A stretch of DNA of 64,000 bases. Source: Octopus vulgaris (taxonomy: Eukaryota). The notes under the pieces were generated by a model. That model saw nothing but the letters and a program-made list of their open reading frames with translations, made no database searches and was not told the origin of the DNA. Position numbers and translations under genes: made by a program. Shown here in pieces: positions 2,909-64,000 of this stretch. Within the stretch, counting starts at the first letter, position 1; each line of letters opens with the position of its first letter. The DNA lies in the NCBI GenBank assembly GCA_951406725.2, contig OX597814.1, positions 75,516,001-75,580,000 on the forward strand. Direction: 5' to 3'.

Positions 2909-4598
2909 TTTAATCATCTGCATCATACTTGCACTAGAAAAAATAAATTTTGACTGATATATCATTAGTTTTTCTTATTGTAGTTATCTCCAAACTAATC
3001 CCTGGCATTCCAATTATAATTGTACTCTTTTTTCTTTAGCTATAATACATCTAGGACTACATTAGTCAATGTGTCCTTTTATTAAAAAAAAAAATGTTTG
3101 AGGCAGATTTCTGGAAAGTTAAGTGATCACATGAGGCTCTTTCATTGGTTCAAGTATACCATAAGTACTTAATTACAACAGAGTCTGAAAGATATATTTG
3201 ACTGAGAAGTGTTATAGAAAGTTGTTGTTCATAAGTGAGAGAGATATGAATTTATTTATGTTGCCAAGCAAAATTACAGTTCTGGCAGATACTGGTGTCA
3301 TGCAAATGGCACCCATTATACTCTCAGAGTGGTTAGCGTTAGGAAGGGCATCCAGCCATAGAAAACCATGCCAAATCAGACTGGATCCTGGTGCAGCCTT
3401 CCAGTGTGCCAGCTCAGTCAAACCATCCAACCCATGCCAGCATGGACAACAGACATTAAATAATGATGATGAAACTTAACACATTGCTTTTGCTTTTATG
3501 AACCACTGCATCTAATATCAAACATCAACTTCAGAAAAGTTGTTATTCATTTAAGCTCTTCTTTTCATCCATTCCTGATTTTTTGCTATCTCATCAATTA
3601 CAGATTGGATTGCAACTCTATTTTTAAGCTATTTTAGTTGAGGCAAACTCAATAGTTTTCTTAAATAAATAAAAGGAACATTAAACCCACTTCATTTCTT
3701 TCCAAATGTTTTTCTTTTTTTCTTTTATTACTTAACTTTAAATCTTACAATATAAATTTCTTTCTTCCAAACAAATGCTGAAATATTGCTAAGTAACTTC
3801 TTCACAAACACCACACATCATAAAACTTTTTTGATTTCATGAAGGGGCAGGAAGCAGTCAATTGCTTCAAAATTGATATATATATTTCATTTAACAAACA
3901 AATCAGTTTGGATTGACTACCATGTGTTCAAAACACAGCAAAATTGTTTATTTCCTACTGAAACCTAATGTCAAAATATATTGCATATTAATCAAGTAAA
4001 TGTTTTCACGTAACTGATACTTATCACTATCATCATCATTTAACGTCTGTTGTCCATGCTGGCATGGGTTGGACAGTTTGACTGAGCTGGCACACTGGAA
4101 GACTGCACCAGCATCCAGTCTGATTTGGCATGGTCTTCTACGACTGGATGCCCTTCCAAACACCAACCACCCTGAGAGTGTAATGGGTACTTTTACATGC
4201 CACTAGCACGGGTGCCATTTGCATGACACTGGTATTTGCCACAAGTGCGATTTTGCTCAGCAATATAAATAAATTCATATCTCTCTTGCTTATGAACAAC
4301 AACTCTCTATTAAACTTCTAAGTCAAATATACCTTTCAGGTTCTGTTGTAATTAAGTACATATAGCATGCTTGAGCCAACTAGACTTTCCACAAATCTGC
4401 CTCAAACATTTTTTTATATAAAAGGACACATTGACTAATATAGTCCTAGATGTATTATAGCTAAAGAAAAAACAGGATGGTTATAATTGAAATGCCAGGG
4501 ATTAGTTTGGAGATAACTAATAACTACAACAACAAAAACTAATGGTGTATCAGTCAAAATTTATATTTTCTAATGCAAGTATGATGCAGATGACTAAA
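2909..4598. repeat. Long diverged inverted repeat (arms ~2909-3472 and ~4028-4598, spacer ~555 bp)
   Basis: Left arm taatcatctgcatcatacttgcactagaaaaaataaattttgactgat...ccatgccagcatggacaacagacattaaa aligns along its length with the reverse complement of 4028-4598 (tttaacgtctgttgtccatgctggcatgg...tcagtcaaaatttatattttctaatgcaagtatgatgcagatgacta), with scattered substitutions and small indels. Confidence 0.9.
3285..3472 (+). mobile_element. RTE-tail SINE or 3'-terminal RTE fragment; related copies at ~2040-2210(+), 4028-4260(-), 27040-27235(+), 45975-46230(-), 53945-54050(+), 54335-54535(-)
   Basis: gagtggttagcgttaggaagggcatccag...ccatgccagcatgga...ttaaataatgatgatg matches the 3' terminus of the RTE LINE at 52180-52338 in this window. 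Confidence 0.8.
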
Positions 4599-36036: not shown

Positions 36037-36278
36037 TGGATTTGGTTAAAAAGAGACGATGAGCGATGGCTAGAAGTATATTGAGTTCATCATAACCAGC
36101 TGATCTAGCAAGCGGGGCCTCATATCAGTGAGGGGGGCCGGTGCGCATTGATGCCGTCGAGAGGTAGGCTCCGAAACGGCACGCATTCTCTCCTGATGAC
36201 CCCATACACTTGCTAGCTTCCGATATACGGAGCTTTTAACTGGTAGCACTTGCATGTGCAAGTTGTTTGCAAGATATC
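36037..36278 (+). repeat. 5' copy of the terminal direct repeat (3' end of ORF plus 3' UTR)
   Basis: Matches 39774-40014 except for one extra G and two substitutions (ggctcc/ggcccc, ggcacgc/ggcgcgc). Confidence 0.97.
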
Positions 36279-36307
36279 TAAGACCTTGTGGTAGGTAACC
36301 ACTGACA

Positions 36308-36405
36308 AACCGGAAAGACGGTTAGGCATCTTGGAAAGACAAGAGGACTGCTCGGAAAGACCAGCGGACAATAGGAAAGACTATCGACACCAGGAAAGAC
36401 TGGCG
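36308..36405 (+). other. Array of five GAAAGA-loop hairpins in the retrotransposon 5' leader
   Basis: GGAAAGAC at 36312, 36333, 36354, 36374 and 36393, each closed by a different complementary stem. Confidence 0.8.
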
Positions 36406-36545
36406 GAGGCTACGGACTTACGATCCTCGCCTCTGTATTTTATTGTAACAGACATAACAGGAAAAGACAGCCCCATGATTGACCGAGAGGGGGAGTCGAG
36501 AATCAATCAAACCCAGTCAGCACGGAAACGACCTTTGAAACGAAC

Positions 36546-39500
36546 ATGATTATTCATTCGAACAGCGGACGAAATGCAAACAACTTTGGATGCAAGCTGT
36601 GCTATAGAACCTTTGCAACTGAGAGAGGCTTGAAGATACATCAGGGAAAGACTTGTGAGAAGAGGACAGAGCAGTGTGGATCGTCAGATCGTAAAACACG
36701 TGGCAAATCATCCCCGGACTCAAACCACAGCGGATCGATAAATGCTACAGCACAGAACTCTTCACGTGAAGAAACTACAAGTCATGAAACTGGTGCATCG
36801 GATAATACTCAGAGGAAACCGAGGGTTTTGTGGCCTGCTGCTAATGAGAAAGTGAAATATAAAGAGTTTGAAAACAAGGTTTGTCGGACTCTTTATAAAA
36901 TGACAGGCTCTACAGTGGAAAAACTGGGAAAATTATCAAGCTCAATATACGATGTAGCAAGAGATTTATTTGGAATAAAAGAGAATATCCGACTAGAGAA
37001 AGGAAAGTGTGGACCAAGCAGGAGGATCAGAAAAATGCAGCAGTTGAGGAAGGAAAAGTCCGACTTAAGAAAGAGATGGAGATGTGCTGCACTAGATGAG
37101 AAACCTGGCCTTGCGTTGCTGTATAACGATTTGAAGAGGAAATGTCGTTATGTGCAATGACATATTCGCCGATATGAGCGTCGAAAAGAAAGTAAAAGGA
37201 CTCGAGGGCAGTTTCTGAAGGACCCGTACGGGTTTACTAAGAAGCTGTTCACTGAGCCGAAGAGTGGTACTTTATCGTGCACTAAAGAAGAATTGGATGC
37301 TCATATCAAGGAAACCTACAGCGATCCGCACCGTAATCAGCCGCTGCCATCTCTACATGGGCTAAATCATCTCTCAGGACCTGATATCGAATTCCAGATT
37401 GGGGACATCAGGGAGAGAGAGGTGAATGACTTCGTAAGAAAAGCTAGAGCGAAGAGTGCCCCAGGAGGTGATGGCGTCTCATATAAAGTCTACAAATACT
37501 GCAATCGCCTGCGAAAGAAGCTCTTCGTCCTAATCCGACAACTGTGGCGCGAGGAGACTATAGTAGAGGATTGGTGTAAGGCAGAAGGTATATACCTGCC
37601 GAAAGAGGCCAATGCAAAGACCATAAAACAGTTTAGGCCGATATCCTTATTGAATGTGGAAGGCAAGATCTTTATGGGAATTCTGTCGAGGAGAACAGTG
37701 ACATATTTACAGAGTAACGGATATGTTGATGAATCTGTTCAAAAGGCCGGAATCCCCGGGATCCCTGGATGCGTTGAACACTGTTTTTCGATTTGGAAAG
37801 CGATTCAGGATGCCAAACAGAACAAGAAAAGTCTGAACGTGGTATGGCTCGACCTAGCTAACGCGTATGGTTCAGTGCCACACAAATTACTAATAACAGC
37901 CATGGACCACTTCCACATTCCTGATAAAGTGATCAAAATAATGAGGATGTACTATGAAAGTTTCGAAATGAGGTTTACAACTGGAAGTTTTACAACAAAT
38001 TGGCACCGATTGGAGGTTGGCATTGCTGCTGGCTGTACAATATCTGTCACGTGGTTTATCTTAGTCATGGAGTTGATTTTGAAAGGTGTAGATTTTTCGG
38101 AACAAATCGCCCATGTACAATCGCCTAAGAAAGCCTTCATGGATGACGTGACACTTCTAGCTACAGATAAACAAATCATGCAGAATGCCCTTTTGAGATT
38201 AGACGAACGTGTAAGGTGGTCAAGGATGCGATTTAGAGCAAAAAAGTCGCGTAGTCTGACATTTGTTAAGGGAGTGCAGAAAGAATTTAAATTTCGAATA
38301 TCGGAAGAAAGCATTCCAACAGTCAAGGAAGAGCCTGTCAAGAGCTTGGGACGAGTATACGCTGGAACATTGTCAGATAGAAGTCGTGGGATTGAAATTA
38401 TGAAACAGGCCGAGGCTGGGTTATCAGCGATTGATGTTTCGAAGTTACCAGGTAAATATAAAATTTGGTGCTTGCAGTTCGGCCTGTACCCGCGACTTGC
38501 GTGGCCACTTTTAATATACGAAGTAGCATTGTCACGAGTTGAAAAGATCGAACAAAAATGTAATGTGTTCATTAGAAAGTGGCTAGGTCTACCTCGTATG
38601 TTGAACAGCTCAGCTCTTTATCGTAAAAGAGGTTCGTTGCAGTTACCAATAGCATCAATAGTCGAAATATATAAGTTGGGGAAGATACGGACGGTCATGA
38701 TGCTGAGAGAATCGAAGGATATGGAAATCAGGCGTAACCCACCAGAGGTGAAAACAGCCAGGAAGTGGAAAGCAGAAGCAGAAACTGACAACATCTTGTC
38801 TTCTCTTACACACAGAGATATGGTGGGAGCAACGCAGAACCATCGGAAAGGATTTGGTTTTGGCGCGGATCAGTTCAGACCGTTTGCAAGCATGATGCCG
38901 TGTGAACGCAGATCTGTTGTTAGCAACAGCGTCAAAACAAGAGAAGCAGAGAGAAGAGAGCTTCATTTGATCCGATGTGTTCATCAAGGTCAGATGACGA
39001 GATGGGAAGAACATGTTGTTGAGAGGAAGATAAGTTGGGATGAGATGTGGAAGTGGACAACATCTCGGCTGAGTTTCCTGATTCGTTCATCTTATGATGT
39101 TTTGCCATCACCTACGAATCTAGTAAGATGGAACGTCTTAGAGAATGACGTCTGCAAATGTGGAAAAGTCGGTACACTAAAACATATTCTTTCCAACTGT
39201 TCGTTAGCATTGAACAGGTACACATGGAGGCACAACTTGGTCCTTAAGGTTATCTTCAATGCTATAAAGAATCAAATTCATCTCAACAACACTGAGGAAA
39301 AATCGTTAAAAGTACCATCAAGAGAGTTCATTACCTTCGTGCGACCAGGTCAGCAGATCCGTTTCAAGAAGAAGACCAAGAAACTTCCTGAGAAAAATGA
39401 AAAGTGGAACGACTATTGGGAGGTAACTGCAGATTTACCTGGGTGCCAGGTTTTCTTTCCCATCCCAGTTTCGAAAAAACCAGATATTTTGATGTGGTGT

Positions 39501-39821
39501 GAAAGAAAGAAAGTTTTAAATATAGTCGAGCTAACGGTTCCTCACGAAGATAATATGGACGCCGCTCGAGCTCGAAAATTAAACCGTTATGAAAACCTCC
39601 TCGAGGAATATGAAGACGCAGGCTGGAAAGCGGAACATTTTCCTATCGAAGTCGGATGTAGAGGGTTTGTAGGACACAGCGTGAGACGACTGTTGTTATC
39701 GTTAGGCCTAACTCATCGTAAAGTCAATACCACCATGACTGATATCCAATCTACAGTGGAGAAGGCTAGCCACTGGATTTGGTTAAAAAGAGACGATGAG
39801 CGATGGCTAGAAGTATATTGA
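36546..39821 (+). CDS. Retrotransposon polyprotein (ZnF-RT-CCHC-RLE), ~1090 codons, interrupted by one in-frame TGA at 37158-37160
   Basis: CKLCYRTFATERGLKIHQGKTC zinc finger; RT motifs SAPGGDG, FRPISLLN, WLDLANAYGSV, GIAAGCTIS, FMDD; CKCGKVGTLKHILSNC knuckle; RHN; KPDILMW...VELTVPHE nuclease. ORFs 36546 and 37293 are in the same frame and the interval after the TGA is open (HIRRYERRKES...). Confidence 0.92.
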
Positions 39822-39841
39822 GTTCATCATAACCAGCTGAT

Positions 39842-39952
39842 CTAGCAAGCGGGGCCTCATATCAGTGAGGGGGCCGGTGCGCATTGATGCCGTCGAGAGG
39901 TAGGCCCCGAAACGGCGCGCATTCTCTCCTGATGACCCCATACACTTGCTAG
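39842..39952 (+). ncRNA. Permuted hammerhead-like structured RNA in the 3' UTR (second copy 36105-36216)
   Basis: gccgTC-gagag...ggcccc-GAAA-cggc...ctctc-CTGATGA-cccc, enclosed by ctagcaag/cttgctag. Confidence 0.6.
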
Positions 39953-40101
39953 CTTCCGATATACGGAGCTTTTAACTGGTAGCACTTGCATGTGCAAGTT
40001 GTTTGCAAGATATCACCCATTATTATCATTACATATGCTTGTATGTATGTATAACAACAATATTAGTAATAATAATAATAAATCTAATCGAAAAAAAAAA
40101 A

Positions 40102-41509: not shown

Positions 41510-42175
41510 TCTGATGCAGTACAATGCCCCGATGCAGTACTAGGCAGTGACTCTCATGGCTTCTCATCTTAACTGATTGGAGGTGTTACAGCAAGTATTC
41601 AGCTCGATACCACAGATTTGCTTGTCAGTTGTTTGACCATAACCAGTTGAGCATGTCCCTTAGTGGCTGACAATATGTGCATCTCTGATCACAAGCAAAA
41701 GTAGTGGGGGAACATCATAGTCATATGTTAAGAGGAATTCTTTGGGGTTTGGATAATTCACATTTGGAAACATGAGTGTTTCATTTAACATCCTTAAATA
41801 AACTTTATTCAGGGACTTTTCAAGCGGGATGGGCTACTTGACCTACTAGAGAAAATTCTAACCTTCGCTAAGGTAGAGGTAATAATAATAATTCCTTGAT
41901 GCCATAGCCAGGCAGTTGCTCTCATGGTTTCTGATCTTAACTGATTGAAAGAGTTATCATGTACAAGTTTTGTCTTGGTGTAAAAGATGGGCTACAGCAA
42001 ATATTCTGCTCACTTCCACAGATTTGCTTGTCAGGTACTTGACTGTAGCCTGTTGAGCATGTCCCTTAGTGGCTGACAATATATGCATCTCTAATCCCAA
42101 ACAGGAGTTGAGGGATATTATTTGGGCTTTAAATAATTCACCCCTAGAAATATGGATGTTTCATTCATAATCATA
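41510..42175 (+). repeat. Two copies of an (AAT)n-associated interspersed repeat; two more at ~52365-52712 and ~52753-53266
   Basis: Shared ggcagtggctctcatggcttctgatcttaactgattgg...gcatgtcccttagtggctg; the copies abut (AAT)n. Confidence 0.8.
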
Positions 42176-52338: not shown

Positions 52339-54845
52339 ATAATAATAATACTAATAATAATAGACAGTGGCTCTCATGGCTTCTGATCTTAACTGATTGG
52401 AAGTTATCATATAGATTGTTTTTGTCTCGGTATAAAAGATGGGCTACAACAATGTTCTGCTCAACATCACAGTTGACCAGTTGTTTGACCTTACTTAACC
52501 AGTTAAGCATGTCCTTTAGTGGCTGGCGATATGTGCATCTCTGATCATGAGCAGAAGTAGTGAGGGAGCATCATAGCCATGTGTTGAGCACCATGTCGTG
52601 CACATATGGTTGTGCCTGGTGTGCCCTTATCAGACAGGTAGTTATGATGAGTATACTTGGCTTCATAAATTTTACCTGTGTCACTTTGATGGCATGCACT
52701 GCTCTCTCACTCAATAATAATAATAAAAATGATGATGATGATAATAATAATAATGCCTTGATGCAGTACCAGGCCATTGCTCTCATGGTTTCTGATCTTA
52801 ACTGATTGAAAGTGTTATCATGTACATGTTTAGTCTTTGTATAAAAGATGGGCTACAGCAAATACTCTGCTCAATACCACAGATTTACTTGTCAGTTGCT
52901 TGACCATAGTCAGTTGAGCATGTCCCTTAGTGGCTGATAATATATGCATCTCTGATCCCAAGCAGGAGTTGAGGGATATTCTTTGGGGTCTGAATAATTC
53001 ACTCCTGGAAACATGGGTGTTTCATTCATCATCCTTAATCCTTATTCAGAGACCTTTTGAGTGAGATGAGCTACTCGAACTGAAGAACTGGGCCCAGCTA
53101 GCAAGGTCATGTCTTTTTTATTTTGATATGAGGTCATCATGTACATGTAGTTGTGATGCATGTGCTAGGTGTAACCTTATCAGACAGGTAGTCATGATGG
53201 GAATATTGGGCTTCATATATTTGTATCTTAGTGTCACTTTGATGGTGTGTACTGCTCCCTCACTCAATAATAATAATAATAATAATAATATGAATAATGT
53301 GAAGAGCTGGCTTTACAAAAAGTGATGTGGTTAAAATTTTTTTAAATTTAAGTTTTAAAAGTACAATCTAACTTAATATTTGATTTCTTTCCTGTTAGAA
53401 TTCTAAATATGGAAATTTAATCAGTCAAACCAAAGAAGGAAAACAACCTAGCTTTTAACAAAGGAAATCAAATCTCAAAATTACTAGTAGCAAAAATAAA
53501 AGAATCTGTCAGTACACAAAAGAGAGACTGAAAAATGAGTGTTGAAAGTAATAAAATGCACACCCAGGAAAAAAAAAAAAAACAAACAAATGACCTGCAG
53601 CAAATAGAAGAGACAATGACATCCTTTTAATAAGATATTCTGCTACAGACATTGAACACTAATTGTCAAAAACAGAGCTCGTCAATTATTTGTTGATAAA
53701 AATGACAAATGATACCGACTGTCAAAATCACTTAGTAATGAAATACTAGAATTGATGTGTGTGTGCACATGTGCCTGAAGGGTGTCAGGCTGAGCATGAG
53801 CATGCACACAGATAAGCTCTTCAATCACATCAAATTAAGAAGACAAACTGGTCCTCTCCCCTCATCCCCAACTCAATTAGATAACTGATTGTGTCCCAAC
53901 ATCATCAAACAATGCACTTTCTGAGTTTGCTCATATTTTCACCAAACTCTACAAACCAAATCAGACTGGAGTCTGGTGCACCTCTCCAGCTCTGATCAAA
54001 CCATCCAACCAATGGACAAGAGATGTTAATGCTGCTGATGATGATGCTTTTAGAAAATAAAATATTAAAGAAAGACTACCTAAATGAAAGTAACATCACT
54101 GAGGCTACCAACTAATGAACCTATCACTTTCACTTTCAATATAGCAAAAATGTAAAAGTAATAGTTAACAATGATGCTTTTATCACCTTGGGCCTCAGTT
54201 GTTACCAATATGGTGCCTACTGAGCTGGATCAACCAAAAATGTTTTATCTTCAATAATTATATTTCAGTTACCATATTGTCAGCCAAGAGGTTGAAAAGT
54301 AAAGTGAATAACCTGTGAAGTGTTATCATTATCAACATCATCATTTAGCCTCTGTTTTTCATAGTGGCACGAGTTAGACGGTTTGATTGGAGCTCGTAAG
54401 CCAAAGAGCTGTACCAGTTCCAGTCTGATTTGGCTTGGATTCTAGAGCTTGATATCCTTCCTGATGCAACCACTCCAAGAATGAAGTGGGTGCCTTTTAC
54501 ATGTCACAGGCACCATCCACGACTATGATTTCACTTGGCACAGTAAATCACTTGTCATCACGTCCATAAGTGAAATTTCAAATCAGAATTCAAAGGTACA
54601 TGGCAATGAATTTCAAGGCACTCTAATTAAGAAACTAAACTAAGCAGAACAAATGCAGCTCTATGTAGGGTGGGACAAGAAAGTTTCAGCCTGGTCATTT
54701 AACGAGTTCAAAATAGAAGCCAAATCATTCTCAAGTCATGCACAAGTGTCTTCAAAACACACAATGACTAATATAGTCCAGTGCATCTTATGCCTGAAAA
54801 TAAGAACAAGATGGTCAAATGATGGTTGCCCTTCGGGTGAACATA

Positions 54846-62654: not shown

Positions 62655-64000
62655 ATCATCATCATCATCATCATTTAGCGTCCGTTTTCCATGCTAGCAT
62701 GGGTTGGACGGTTCAACTGGGGTCTGGGGAGCCCGAAGGCTGCACCAGGCCAGTCAGATCTGGCAGTGTTTCTACAGCTGGATGCCCTTCCTAACGCCAA
62801 CCACTCCGAGAGTGTAGTGGGTGATTTTATGTGCCACCGACACAGGTGCCAGACGAGGCTGGCAGACGGCCACGCTCGGATGGTGTTTTTATGTGCCACC
62901 GACACAGGTGCCAGATGAGGCTGGCGGACGGCCACGATCGGATGGTGTTTGTTACGTCCCCCAAGCACGGAGGCCAGTCTATGCGGTACTGGCTACGGCC
63001 ACGTTCGGATGATTTTCTTGTGTGCCACCGGCACTGGTACCACAAAGATACAAATTCCATTGATGTTCATCTATTTTGATTTGTTTTGATTTGATTCTCA
63101 CTTGCCTCAACAGGTCTTCACAAGTGTCACAAGAAGGAAGGTATGCACAGGTGGACTGACTACGTCCCAGGTAGGGGCCACGGGTTATGGCCTGACTAGT
63201 CTTGCCGGGTCTTCGGATGGTGTTTTTATGTGCCACCGACACAGGTGCCAGATGAGGCTGGCGAACGGCCACGATTGGATGGTGTTTGTTGCGTGCCCAC
63301 AGCACGGAGGCCAGTTGATGCGGTACTGGCTACGGCCACGTTCGGATGGTTTTCTTGTGTGCCACCGGCACTGGTACCACAAAGATACAAATTCCATTGA
63401 TGTTCATCTATTTTGATTTGATTTGATTTGATTTTCACTTGCCTCAACAGGTCTTCACAAGTGTCACAAGAAGGAAGGAAGGTATGCACAGGTGGACTGA
63501 CTACGTCCCAAATAGGGGCCACGGGTTATGGCCTGACTAGTCTTGCCGGGTCTTCGGTTGGTGTTTTTATGTGCCACCGACACAGGTGCCAGATGAGGCT
63601 GGCGGACGGCCACGATCGGATGGTGTTTGTTATGTGCCCACATCACAGAGGCCAGTCGATGCGGTACTGGCTACGGCCACGTTCGGATGGTTTTCTTGTG
63701 TGCCACCGGTACTGGTACCACAAAGATACAAATTCCATTGATGTTCATCTATTTTGATTTGGTTTGATTTGATTTGATTTGATTTTCACTTGCCTCAACA
63801 GGTCTACACAAGTGTCACACACTTGCCTCAACAGGTCTTCACAAGTGTCATAAGTAGGAAGGTATGCACAGGTGGACTGACTACGTCGCCGGGTCTTCGG
63901 ATGGTGTTTTTATGTGCCACCGACACAGGTGCCAGATGAGGCTGGCGAACGGCCACGATCGGATGGTTTTCTTGTGTGCCACCGGTACCGGAACCACAAA
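62655..64000 (-). mobile_element. 3' UTR and tail of a second RTE-like element with ~340-bp tandem units (runs off the window)
   Basis: (CAT)n then the reverse complement of the RTE tail. Unit marker cacaaagatacaaattccattgatg occurs at 63041, 63378 and 63719. Confidence 0.85.

Follow-up and report, generated by a model that had tools for sequence, protein, structure and literature searches.

A hammerhead-like RNA motif with a rearranged block order is located in the 3′ UTR of a Hero-like retrotransposon of Octopus vulgaris (39842..39952, + strand), 21 nt downstream of the stop codon, and a second copy lies at the upstream end of the same insertion (36105..36216, + strand). All positions refer to the window, the whole 64,000-nt stretch of contig OX597814.1 that was analysed. 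We suggest, with a probability of roughly 0.6, that the motif is a cis-acting ribozyme which frees a 3,736-nt RNA, and that ligation closes this RNA into a circle, on which copying is primed internally.

The retrotransposon unit comprises 3,736 nt (36279..40014, + strand) with a fixed 3′ (priming) end at about 40013-40015. It is joined seamlessly at its start to a 5′-truncated partial copy of its own 3′ end, the 'terminal repeat' (36037..36278, + strand), which corresponds to 39774-40014 and contains the end of the ORF and the 3′ UTR. The coding region (36483..39821, + strand) encodes an N-terminal Cys/His motif, a reverse transcriptase (Pfam RVT_1; e-value: 4e-19), a CCHC knuckle and a PD..E restriction-like endonuclease. 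Its ORF is interrupted by an in-frame stop codon (37158-60) and a frame disruption near 36488, and the contigs of all four sequencing runs differ from the window at 36488 and 37158-37160; judging from its sequence, the window copy itself is probably not coding-competent. The protein shares 39% amino acid identity over 879 residues with a Takifugu reverse transcriptase (BAC82598). This Takifugu protein is presumably HEROFr, and it is on this assumption that the element is termed Hero-like; the available text of PMC2790886 lists HEROFr by DNA accession only. A single ORF (interrupted here) in which the reverse transcriptase is followed by CCHC and PD..D/E nuclease domains is shared with the HERO clade, named by Kojima and Fujiwara 2004 (via passages in PMC2790886, PMC3636483 and PMC4640811), as is a weak target specificity leaning to microsatellites (same passages). 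The octopus element differs in the CxxC..H..C motif in frame 36483-37160, as fish HEROs lack a Cys/His motif upstream of the reverse transcriptase, a criterion based on three fish elements (PMC2790886, in part). It differs further in that a ribozyme, a terminal repeat and a circular intermediate are undescribed for HERO in the available text of these three papers.

Read 5′ to 3′ on the + strand, the 3′ copy of the motif begins with the 5′ strands of an outer clamp stem (39842..39849; partner 39945-39952) and of the clamp helix Pa (39851..39854; partner 39936-39939, immediately 3′ of A9), which are merged into a single 9-15 bp clamp in most relatives. Hairpin Pb (39855..39870; 39855-59/39866-70) lies between the clamp and stem II as a junction arm replacing the A9-G10.1 link. 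It is followed by the stem II strand with G10.1, which is displaced upstream (39870..39875; partner 39903-39908), the 5′ strand of a 7-bp interaction helix (39876..39882; partner 39917-39923) and 6 nt which, from their sequence, would serve as a hinge linking the interaction helix to stem III (39883..39888). Block S, assigned by pairing (39889..39899), contains a stem III strand, the GUC triplet (39892-94) and a stem I strand (39895-99), and the predicted cut site is the bond 39894/39895, directly after GUC. A linker of 3 nt between stems I and II (39900..39902), assigned by sequence, leads into block G (39903..39916; pairing), with the partner strand of stem II, GAAA (39909-12) and the second stem III strand, after which stem III abuts the interaction helix with a zero-base link. 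Block C minus its stem II strand (39924..39935; pairing) holds the other stem I strand and CUGAUGA (39929-35), and the 3′ clamp strand (39936-52) forms the last part of the motif. Stem III pairs 39889-93 with 39912-16 and stem I pairs 39895-99 with 39924-28; in the 5′ copy, the predicted cut falls after C36158. All pairings and core elements named in the earlier note are present between 39842 and 39952, while two helices were left unnamed there, namely the hairpin 39855-59/39866-70 and the 7-bp helix 39876-82/39917-23. The latter is the counterpart of the stem I-II helix in type-SGC ribozymes (PMC10085705).

The core contains CUGAnGA, GAAA, an NUH triplet and stems I and III in register, as in other hammerheads, and the R10.1-Y11.1 pair which opens stem II beside G12 is present, but is supplied by the upstream strand. 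As the earlier note had recognised, the order fits none of the hammerhead types I, II and III, which follow the order C-G-S around a three-way junction without a pseudoknot, whereas the window shows S-G-C with crossing stems. The motif is thus a predicted hammerhead in S-G-C order with the stem II strand shifted upstream. Eckert et al. 2023 (PMC10085705) distinguished three hammerhead blocks, S, G and C, and reported natural S-G-C forms which cleave. The window motif resembles these type-SGC ribozymes in its block order, its double pseudoknot, its intact core, a 3-nt linker between stems I and II (there 'typically' three nucleotides) and an interaction helix (here 7 bp), one strand of which is placed between stem III and stem I. 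The difference lies in the stem II strand, which directly follows CUGAnGA in type-SGC, leaving block C unbroken, but is located upstream of block S in the window, where no pairs form at the usual place. This contradicts the premise of PMC10085705 that an interruption of block C is impossible, and since the search patterns in the available part of that paper require stem II within one base of CUGAnGA, the window layout would escape them.

Hand reading of the SGC-1 oligonucleotides in the available part of PMC10085705 gives 5 bp for stem I, 3 nt for the linker, 5 bp for stem II and 6-7 bp for an interaction helix without a spacer to stem III, together with one additional U 3′ of CUGAUGA. By this reading the window geometry is near-identical with one change, in that the strand bearing stem II and the interaction helix sits at the 5′ instead of the 3′ end, tied to stem III by the hinge, and the chain is opened precisely where SGC-1 has its extra base. 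It is fairly probable that the motif derives from a type-SGC hammerhead by circular permutation, with a new opening in the catalytic core between A9 and G10.1 and the gap spanned by the clamp helix and hairpin Pb. An unpaired base at the 5′ end of stem II is tolerated in other hammerheads (one passage of PMC4209133), but for a helix junction at A9/G10.1 we found no tested precedent, which speaks against this reading.

The Rfam hammerhead models show no match to the window region at E<=10, nor to the relatives L061, L070 and L094. Type-SGC ribozymes (HRIMA-1 and variants) come from metatranscriptomes only, with none from genomes of known organisms (PMC10085705), and the term 'type-SGC' was used by Eckert et al. 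only in the literature searched. The same literature, which covered sources other than subscription papers, Repbase reports, bioRxiv supplements and most of the Eckert supplement, held no link between HERO and hammerheads and no motif of this layout, and the available part of bioRxiv 10.64898/2026.07.22.740005 makes no mention of Hero. The motif appears to be a new variant hammerhead, in a retrotransposon clade for which we found neither a ribozyme nor a circular template described.

Relatives were taken from the best 80 of 195 metagenome loci of the protein alignment and one contig of a prokaryote collection. Of these 81 loci, 67 have a recognisable C terminus and formed the 3′ UTR set scanned. 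A descriptor of the full layout matches completely in 18/67 3′ UTRs, with one further match cut by a contig end, and in both window copies, as opposed to 0/420 shuffles in which the core bases were held in place. Conservation of the motif extends over fish-type and other Hero-like 3′ UTRs, in agreement with the similar motif order that the earlier note had suggested for fish Hero 3′ ends. Hairpin Pb occurs in every full match, GAAAC and CUGAnGA are invariant across 17 aligned sequences, and all catalytic bases and the NUH triplet are retained across the clade. In the 16 non-redundant members, stem I opens with G-C in five, U-A in six, C-G in four and A-U in one, stem II with G-C in 15 and G-U in one, and stem III with G-C in all 16.

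Covariation, the check proposed in the earlier note, was tallied for stems I, II, III and Pa, and each of them shows compensatory changes and more than one type of base pair; these pair counts overstate the independent events, because descriptor partners are picked to pair and the members are related. Swapping strands between members gives full pairing in 21/240 (stem I), 33/240 (stem II), 48/240 (stem III) and 38/240 (Pa) cases. Covariation was counted through the descriptor parse, and the alignment-based model R1 was kept sequence-only, because a structure-based count would have needed a tighter alignment than the MAFFT alignment A3; the automatic parse went wrong for Pa in L064 and L082, and for stem II in L082. 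The interaction helix measures 4-11 bp in the relatives, and a hinge of several unpaired bases between it and stem III is recurrent. A canonical stem II following CUGAnGA was considered and rejected, with 0-2 pairs in 14/16 members and four in L087 and L097. Taken across the clade, the hammerhead fold is almost certainly conserved.

The sequence-only model R1 recovers 31/80 loci, including 16 on which it had not been trained, and misses L097 and L126. In a quick tree of 63 rows, which has no named references, the motif-bearing rows all fall within the 33-row side of a branch with 97% support, and the other 30 rows are all without the motif. A pair between positions 3 and 8 is a known feature of hammerheads. 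U3/A8 replaces C3/G8 in L078 and L083, and U3/G8 is found in L080, variants which would preserve this pair. No relative was found in viral contigs, and prokaryote genomes yielded one short contig only, without a 3′ end. A 6-base palindrome (UGAUCA or GACGUC) is present in the Pb region of L064, L069, L070, L071, L072, L074, L076, L082, L104 and L122, and of L094 and L098, with UGAUCA in nine and GACGUC in two of the 24 relatives examined and neither in the window family. Such palindromes resemble retroviral dimer-initiation loops.

The earlier note held that a monomer would be too knotted to fold and that the apical loop of one copy would have to dock on the base of another. This obligate dimer would be in keeping with the metazoan Penelope and amphibian retrozyme hammerheads, which act as dimers (passages in PMC4209133 and PMC7229834), and the palindromes noted above are possible self-pairing loops; a monomer would moreover be strained by the lack of any base between stem III and the interaction helix, a feature which according to Eckert et al. 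is not obviously compatible with the crystal structure (PMC10085705). However, single-motif type-SGC constructs of near-identical geometry self-cleave during transcription, with all four helices required (PMC10085705; the available text gives no concentration series), so that docking of two copies is not required and the claim is not supported. The unpaired hinge of the relatives suits a fold-back within one copy, the window's own family is without the palindrome, and its two copies lie 3.7 kb apart. As such, an obligate dimer is improbable, and a monomeric fold is likely. In a limited sense two copies would still make one ribozyme, in that the ends of the unit RNA would carry ribozyme halves from different genomic copies.

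The two pairing-preserving substitutions which the earlier note had listed in the 5′ copy are both present, but the copies show three differences, the third being one extra G in a G run. These differences are weak evidence for pairing, because one of them, G39917A, is located at a CpG and occurs in 14 of the 100 genomic copies that were listed first. The lowest-energy predicted fold of the 3′ copy is a rod (-44.7 kcal/mol) in which all seven CUGAUGA bases are paired, compared to -33.3 kcal/mol for the nested part of the active fold, a sum which leaves out the pseudoknot stems I and II. With the rod as the predicted ground state, cutting may be slow or regulated. In the alternative rod, the Pb strand 39859-39873 pairs with 39924-39935, including CUGAUGA, and likewise in L061; as modelled, this pairing could turn the ribozyme off, for example within a circle.

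The predicted cut, placed by the earlier note after C39894 and C36158, has a footprint in the genome. A 32-mer starting at the cut site has 512 exact copies in the 2.8-Gb genome, of which 470 have the expected C directly before the site. Among the 42 without it, 11 run from host DNA to the site and continue with the element from G39895 (one is ambiguous owing to microhomology), while the other 31 have point changes inside continuous element sequence. Truncations were then sampled with patterns catching any break in three adjacent 14-base windows. Between 39891 and 39904, 24 matches gave 15 truncations (L159 was dropped, its break being further upstream), all within 39892-39896, and 8/15 start at 39895 under strict counting or 10/15 if one internal substitution is allowed (binomial chance at one pre-named position: 3e-6 and 7e-9, respectively). 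The neighbouring stretch 39905-39918 gave 23 matches and seven truncations at seven positions (at most one each), and 39876-39889 gave eight truncations in the 30 of 69 matches read, with at most two per position. The piling of 5′ ends at the predicted bond indicates that RNA with a 5′ end there repeatedly served as template, and cutting in vivo is very likely. A second cluster of 5′ ends near 39640-39656 was dropped, as the initial 6/30 became eight in 18 nt in a larger sample, about twice the background.

The same pile-up would be expected of a non-catalytic, hammerhead-derived protein-binding site at which the reverse transcriptase pauses, and the 3′ UTR structures of R2-group elements do bind the element protein. 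The opening of the core at A9/G10.1 could furthermore abolish catalysis. This explanation is nevertheless very unlikely, given that all catalytic bases and the NUH triplet are kept across the clade and that the ends accumulate at the single bond that had been predicted in advance rather than at the 3′ foot of a helix, with no such peak at 39905-39918. The footprint is the strongest, if indirect, evidence for cutting in vivo. About 97% of the copies span the site intact and only about 11/512 begin there, so most templates were intact at the site, which fits ligation and equally fits no cutting.

The element copies have fixed 3′ ends, with 96/112 distinct copies stopping at 40013-40015, and varied, A/T-rich 3′ flanks. 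All 12 exact matches to the element start are preceded by the element's own 3′ end through one identical junction, and the upstream part of these copies is truncated at scattered points. The upstream cut site is crossed by ten of the 12 and is the starting point of none, and the longest copy read comprises 1,975 nt plus one full unit (1.53 units). The element is without a genomic 5′ end. Since 12/12 starts are preceded by its 3′ end, the template was longer than one unit, and the shared junction identifies the 'terminal repeat' as a by-product of copying more than one unit; the release of unit-length RNA put forward in the earlier note fits this structure of shared junctions and longer-than-unit copies. 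The motif is also found upstream of the ORF in L066, L068, L070, L071, L078, L100 and L122, and twice in L070 and L071; contigs of this kind can be shaped by collapsed assembly, but only if the junction is present in the reads. The joint 40014-to-36280 is found in the contigs of two of the four sequencing runs, which were presumed to be RNA but may hold DNA, and it is given no weight as evidence here. Neither the window copy nor 11 short copies showed a clear target-site duplication. Site-specific insertion beside an older copy was dismissed as an origin of the tandem form, given that the 3′ flanks vary while 12/12 starts share one junction.

Longer-than-unit copies might also arise by uncut read-through of a tandem master locus, with rare cutting serving in trimming, RNA turnover or copy-number control. 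The roughly 97% of copies intact across the site and the inactive rod as predicted ground state agree with this. However, no multi-unit array was observed among the 12 exact element starts, no two of which lie one unit apart, although collapsed arrays may be missing from the assembly. Without regeneration, moreover, the repeat would shrink in each round, yet it is present in 12/12 copies and at seven loci elsewhere. We consider this read-through improbable.

In the mechanism we prefer, the motif would fold within one copy and cut after GUC, so that a transcript through a two-copy insertion would be cut twice to give a 3,736-nt unit RNA from G36159 to C39894 with 5′-OH and 2′,3′-cyclic phosphate ends. 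These ends would be ligated, probably by host RtcB, and the element's reverse transcriptase would prime on the circle at the fixed internal site, 120 nt 3′ of the cut. Copying of the circle for more than one round would regenerate two-ribozyme copies, and unligated RNA would give rise to 120-nt insertions beginning exactly at the cut. Template jumping by R2-type enzymes is established, and the shared junction could be reached without ligation if the reverse transcriptase ran to the 5′ end of the unit RNA at the cut and then jumped to a 3′ end, either of that molecule or of a second unit RNA, the 5′ ends piled at G39895 being the run-off at that point. Such jumps usually add or lose bases, whereas 470/512 copies have the expected C (a count in which copies with added bases ending in C are not separated) and 31 of the remaining 42 are point changes in continuous element sequence. 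Jumping is unlikely, if less so than the other alternatives, and a ligated circle is fairly likely.

A comparable cycle has been proposed for Penelope-like elements, in which a unit RNA freed by two cuts is circularised by ligation and the circle then templates more than one round of copying (Cervera and de la Peña 2014; PMC4209133, in part). As in the octopus element, these autonomous elements carry a ribozyme in both flanking repeats and form head-to-tail, longer-than-unit copies for which a circular template was proposed. They differ in their GIY-YIG nuclease and their minimal type I hammerheads, thought to be dimeric (same passages), whereas the octopus element combines a restriction-like nuclease at the C terminus with a rearranged hammerhead that is complete. 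Animal non-LTR retrozymes would share the double self-cleavage, the monomer RNA and RtcB as the likely circulariser (PMC7229834; bioRxiv 10.64898/2026.07.22.740005; both in part), and RtcB circularises their RNA far better than self-ligation does (PMC7229834, in part), but they are, in the same sources, non-coding repeats of 150-450 nt with type I hammerheads, in contrast to the present 3.7-kb coding element. With no GIY-YIG nuclease, with coding capacity and without a type I or III hammerhead, the element may, by analogy, work like Penelope elements or retrozymes without being a member of either. R2 and other non-LTR elements carry HDV-like 5′ ribozymes (Eickbush and Eickbush 2010; Ruminski 2011; via passages in PMC4209133 and PMC13725137). 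The likeness to R2 lies in membership of the R2 group, an RNA end made (here by prediction) by a self-cleaving ribozyme and the mark this leaves at the 5′ ends of insertions; in R2, however, an HDV fold at the 5′ end is combined with a linear 3′-primed template and copies of at most unit length, as opposed to a 3′ UTR hammerhead, internal priming and longer-than-unit copies here.

If this interpretation holds, a hammerhead topology which the published six-permutation scheme rules out would be added, and the non-circularly permuted hammerhead would gain its first genomic home in animals. It would further imply that a LINE-type element can exist without a true 5′ end, copied from a circle by internal priming, a template argued so far for Penelope elements and retrozymes only. 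The circle model is testable in this compact single-ORF element, with cut-site starts versus read-through as the genomic read-out. R2-group proteins are under development for gene insertion, and a protein of this group with internal priming on circular RNA would be of practical interest in this regard.

The sister clade shows further structured 3′ UTRs. In L116 (4014-4070; similar in L118 and L119), a weak match to the Rfam Twister-P5 model is observed (Bitscore: 28.3 against a gathering threshold of 37.6; e-value: 0.072), indicating a possible twister ribozyme at the equivalent place in this 3′ UTR. A second conserved and apparently covarying structure with twister-like pieces is located about 150-330 nt after the stop codon in L121, L124, L135, L131, L134, L137 and L139; it matched no ribozyme family and is a candidate for a new or permuted self-cleaving RNA. 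We give even odds to the joint proposal that an animal clade of restriction-endonuclease LINE-like elements is copied via circular RNA made by a ribozyme whose permutation lies outside the supposed six, and that its sister clade may be copied via twister-like ribozymes. If the sister clade does behave likewise, the association of 3′ UTR self-cleaving RNA with rolling-circle copying would be ancient in this branch of the R2 group.

Sister-clade member L125 contains GAAA and CUGACGA with possible stems and long insertions 150-238 nt after the stop codon, a motif missed by both the descriptor and the sequence-only model. The remainder of the window contains tandem repeats of about 340 nt (62796-63996), a long inverted repeat (2909-4598) and dispersed short interspersed repeats (41523-42172 and 52343-53033), all unrelated to the ribozyme. 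A conserved G+C-rich island is furthermore embedded in the otherwise A+T-rich 3′ UTRs of the sister-clade loci L101, L103, L105 and L108, and of L109 and L112.
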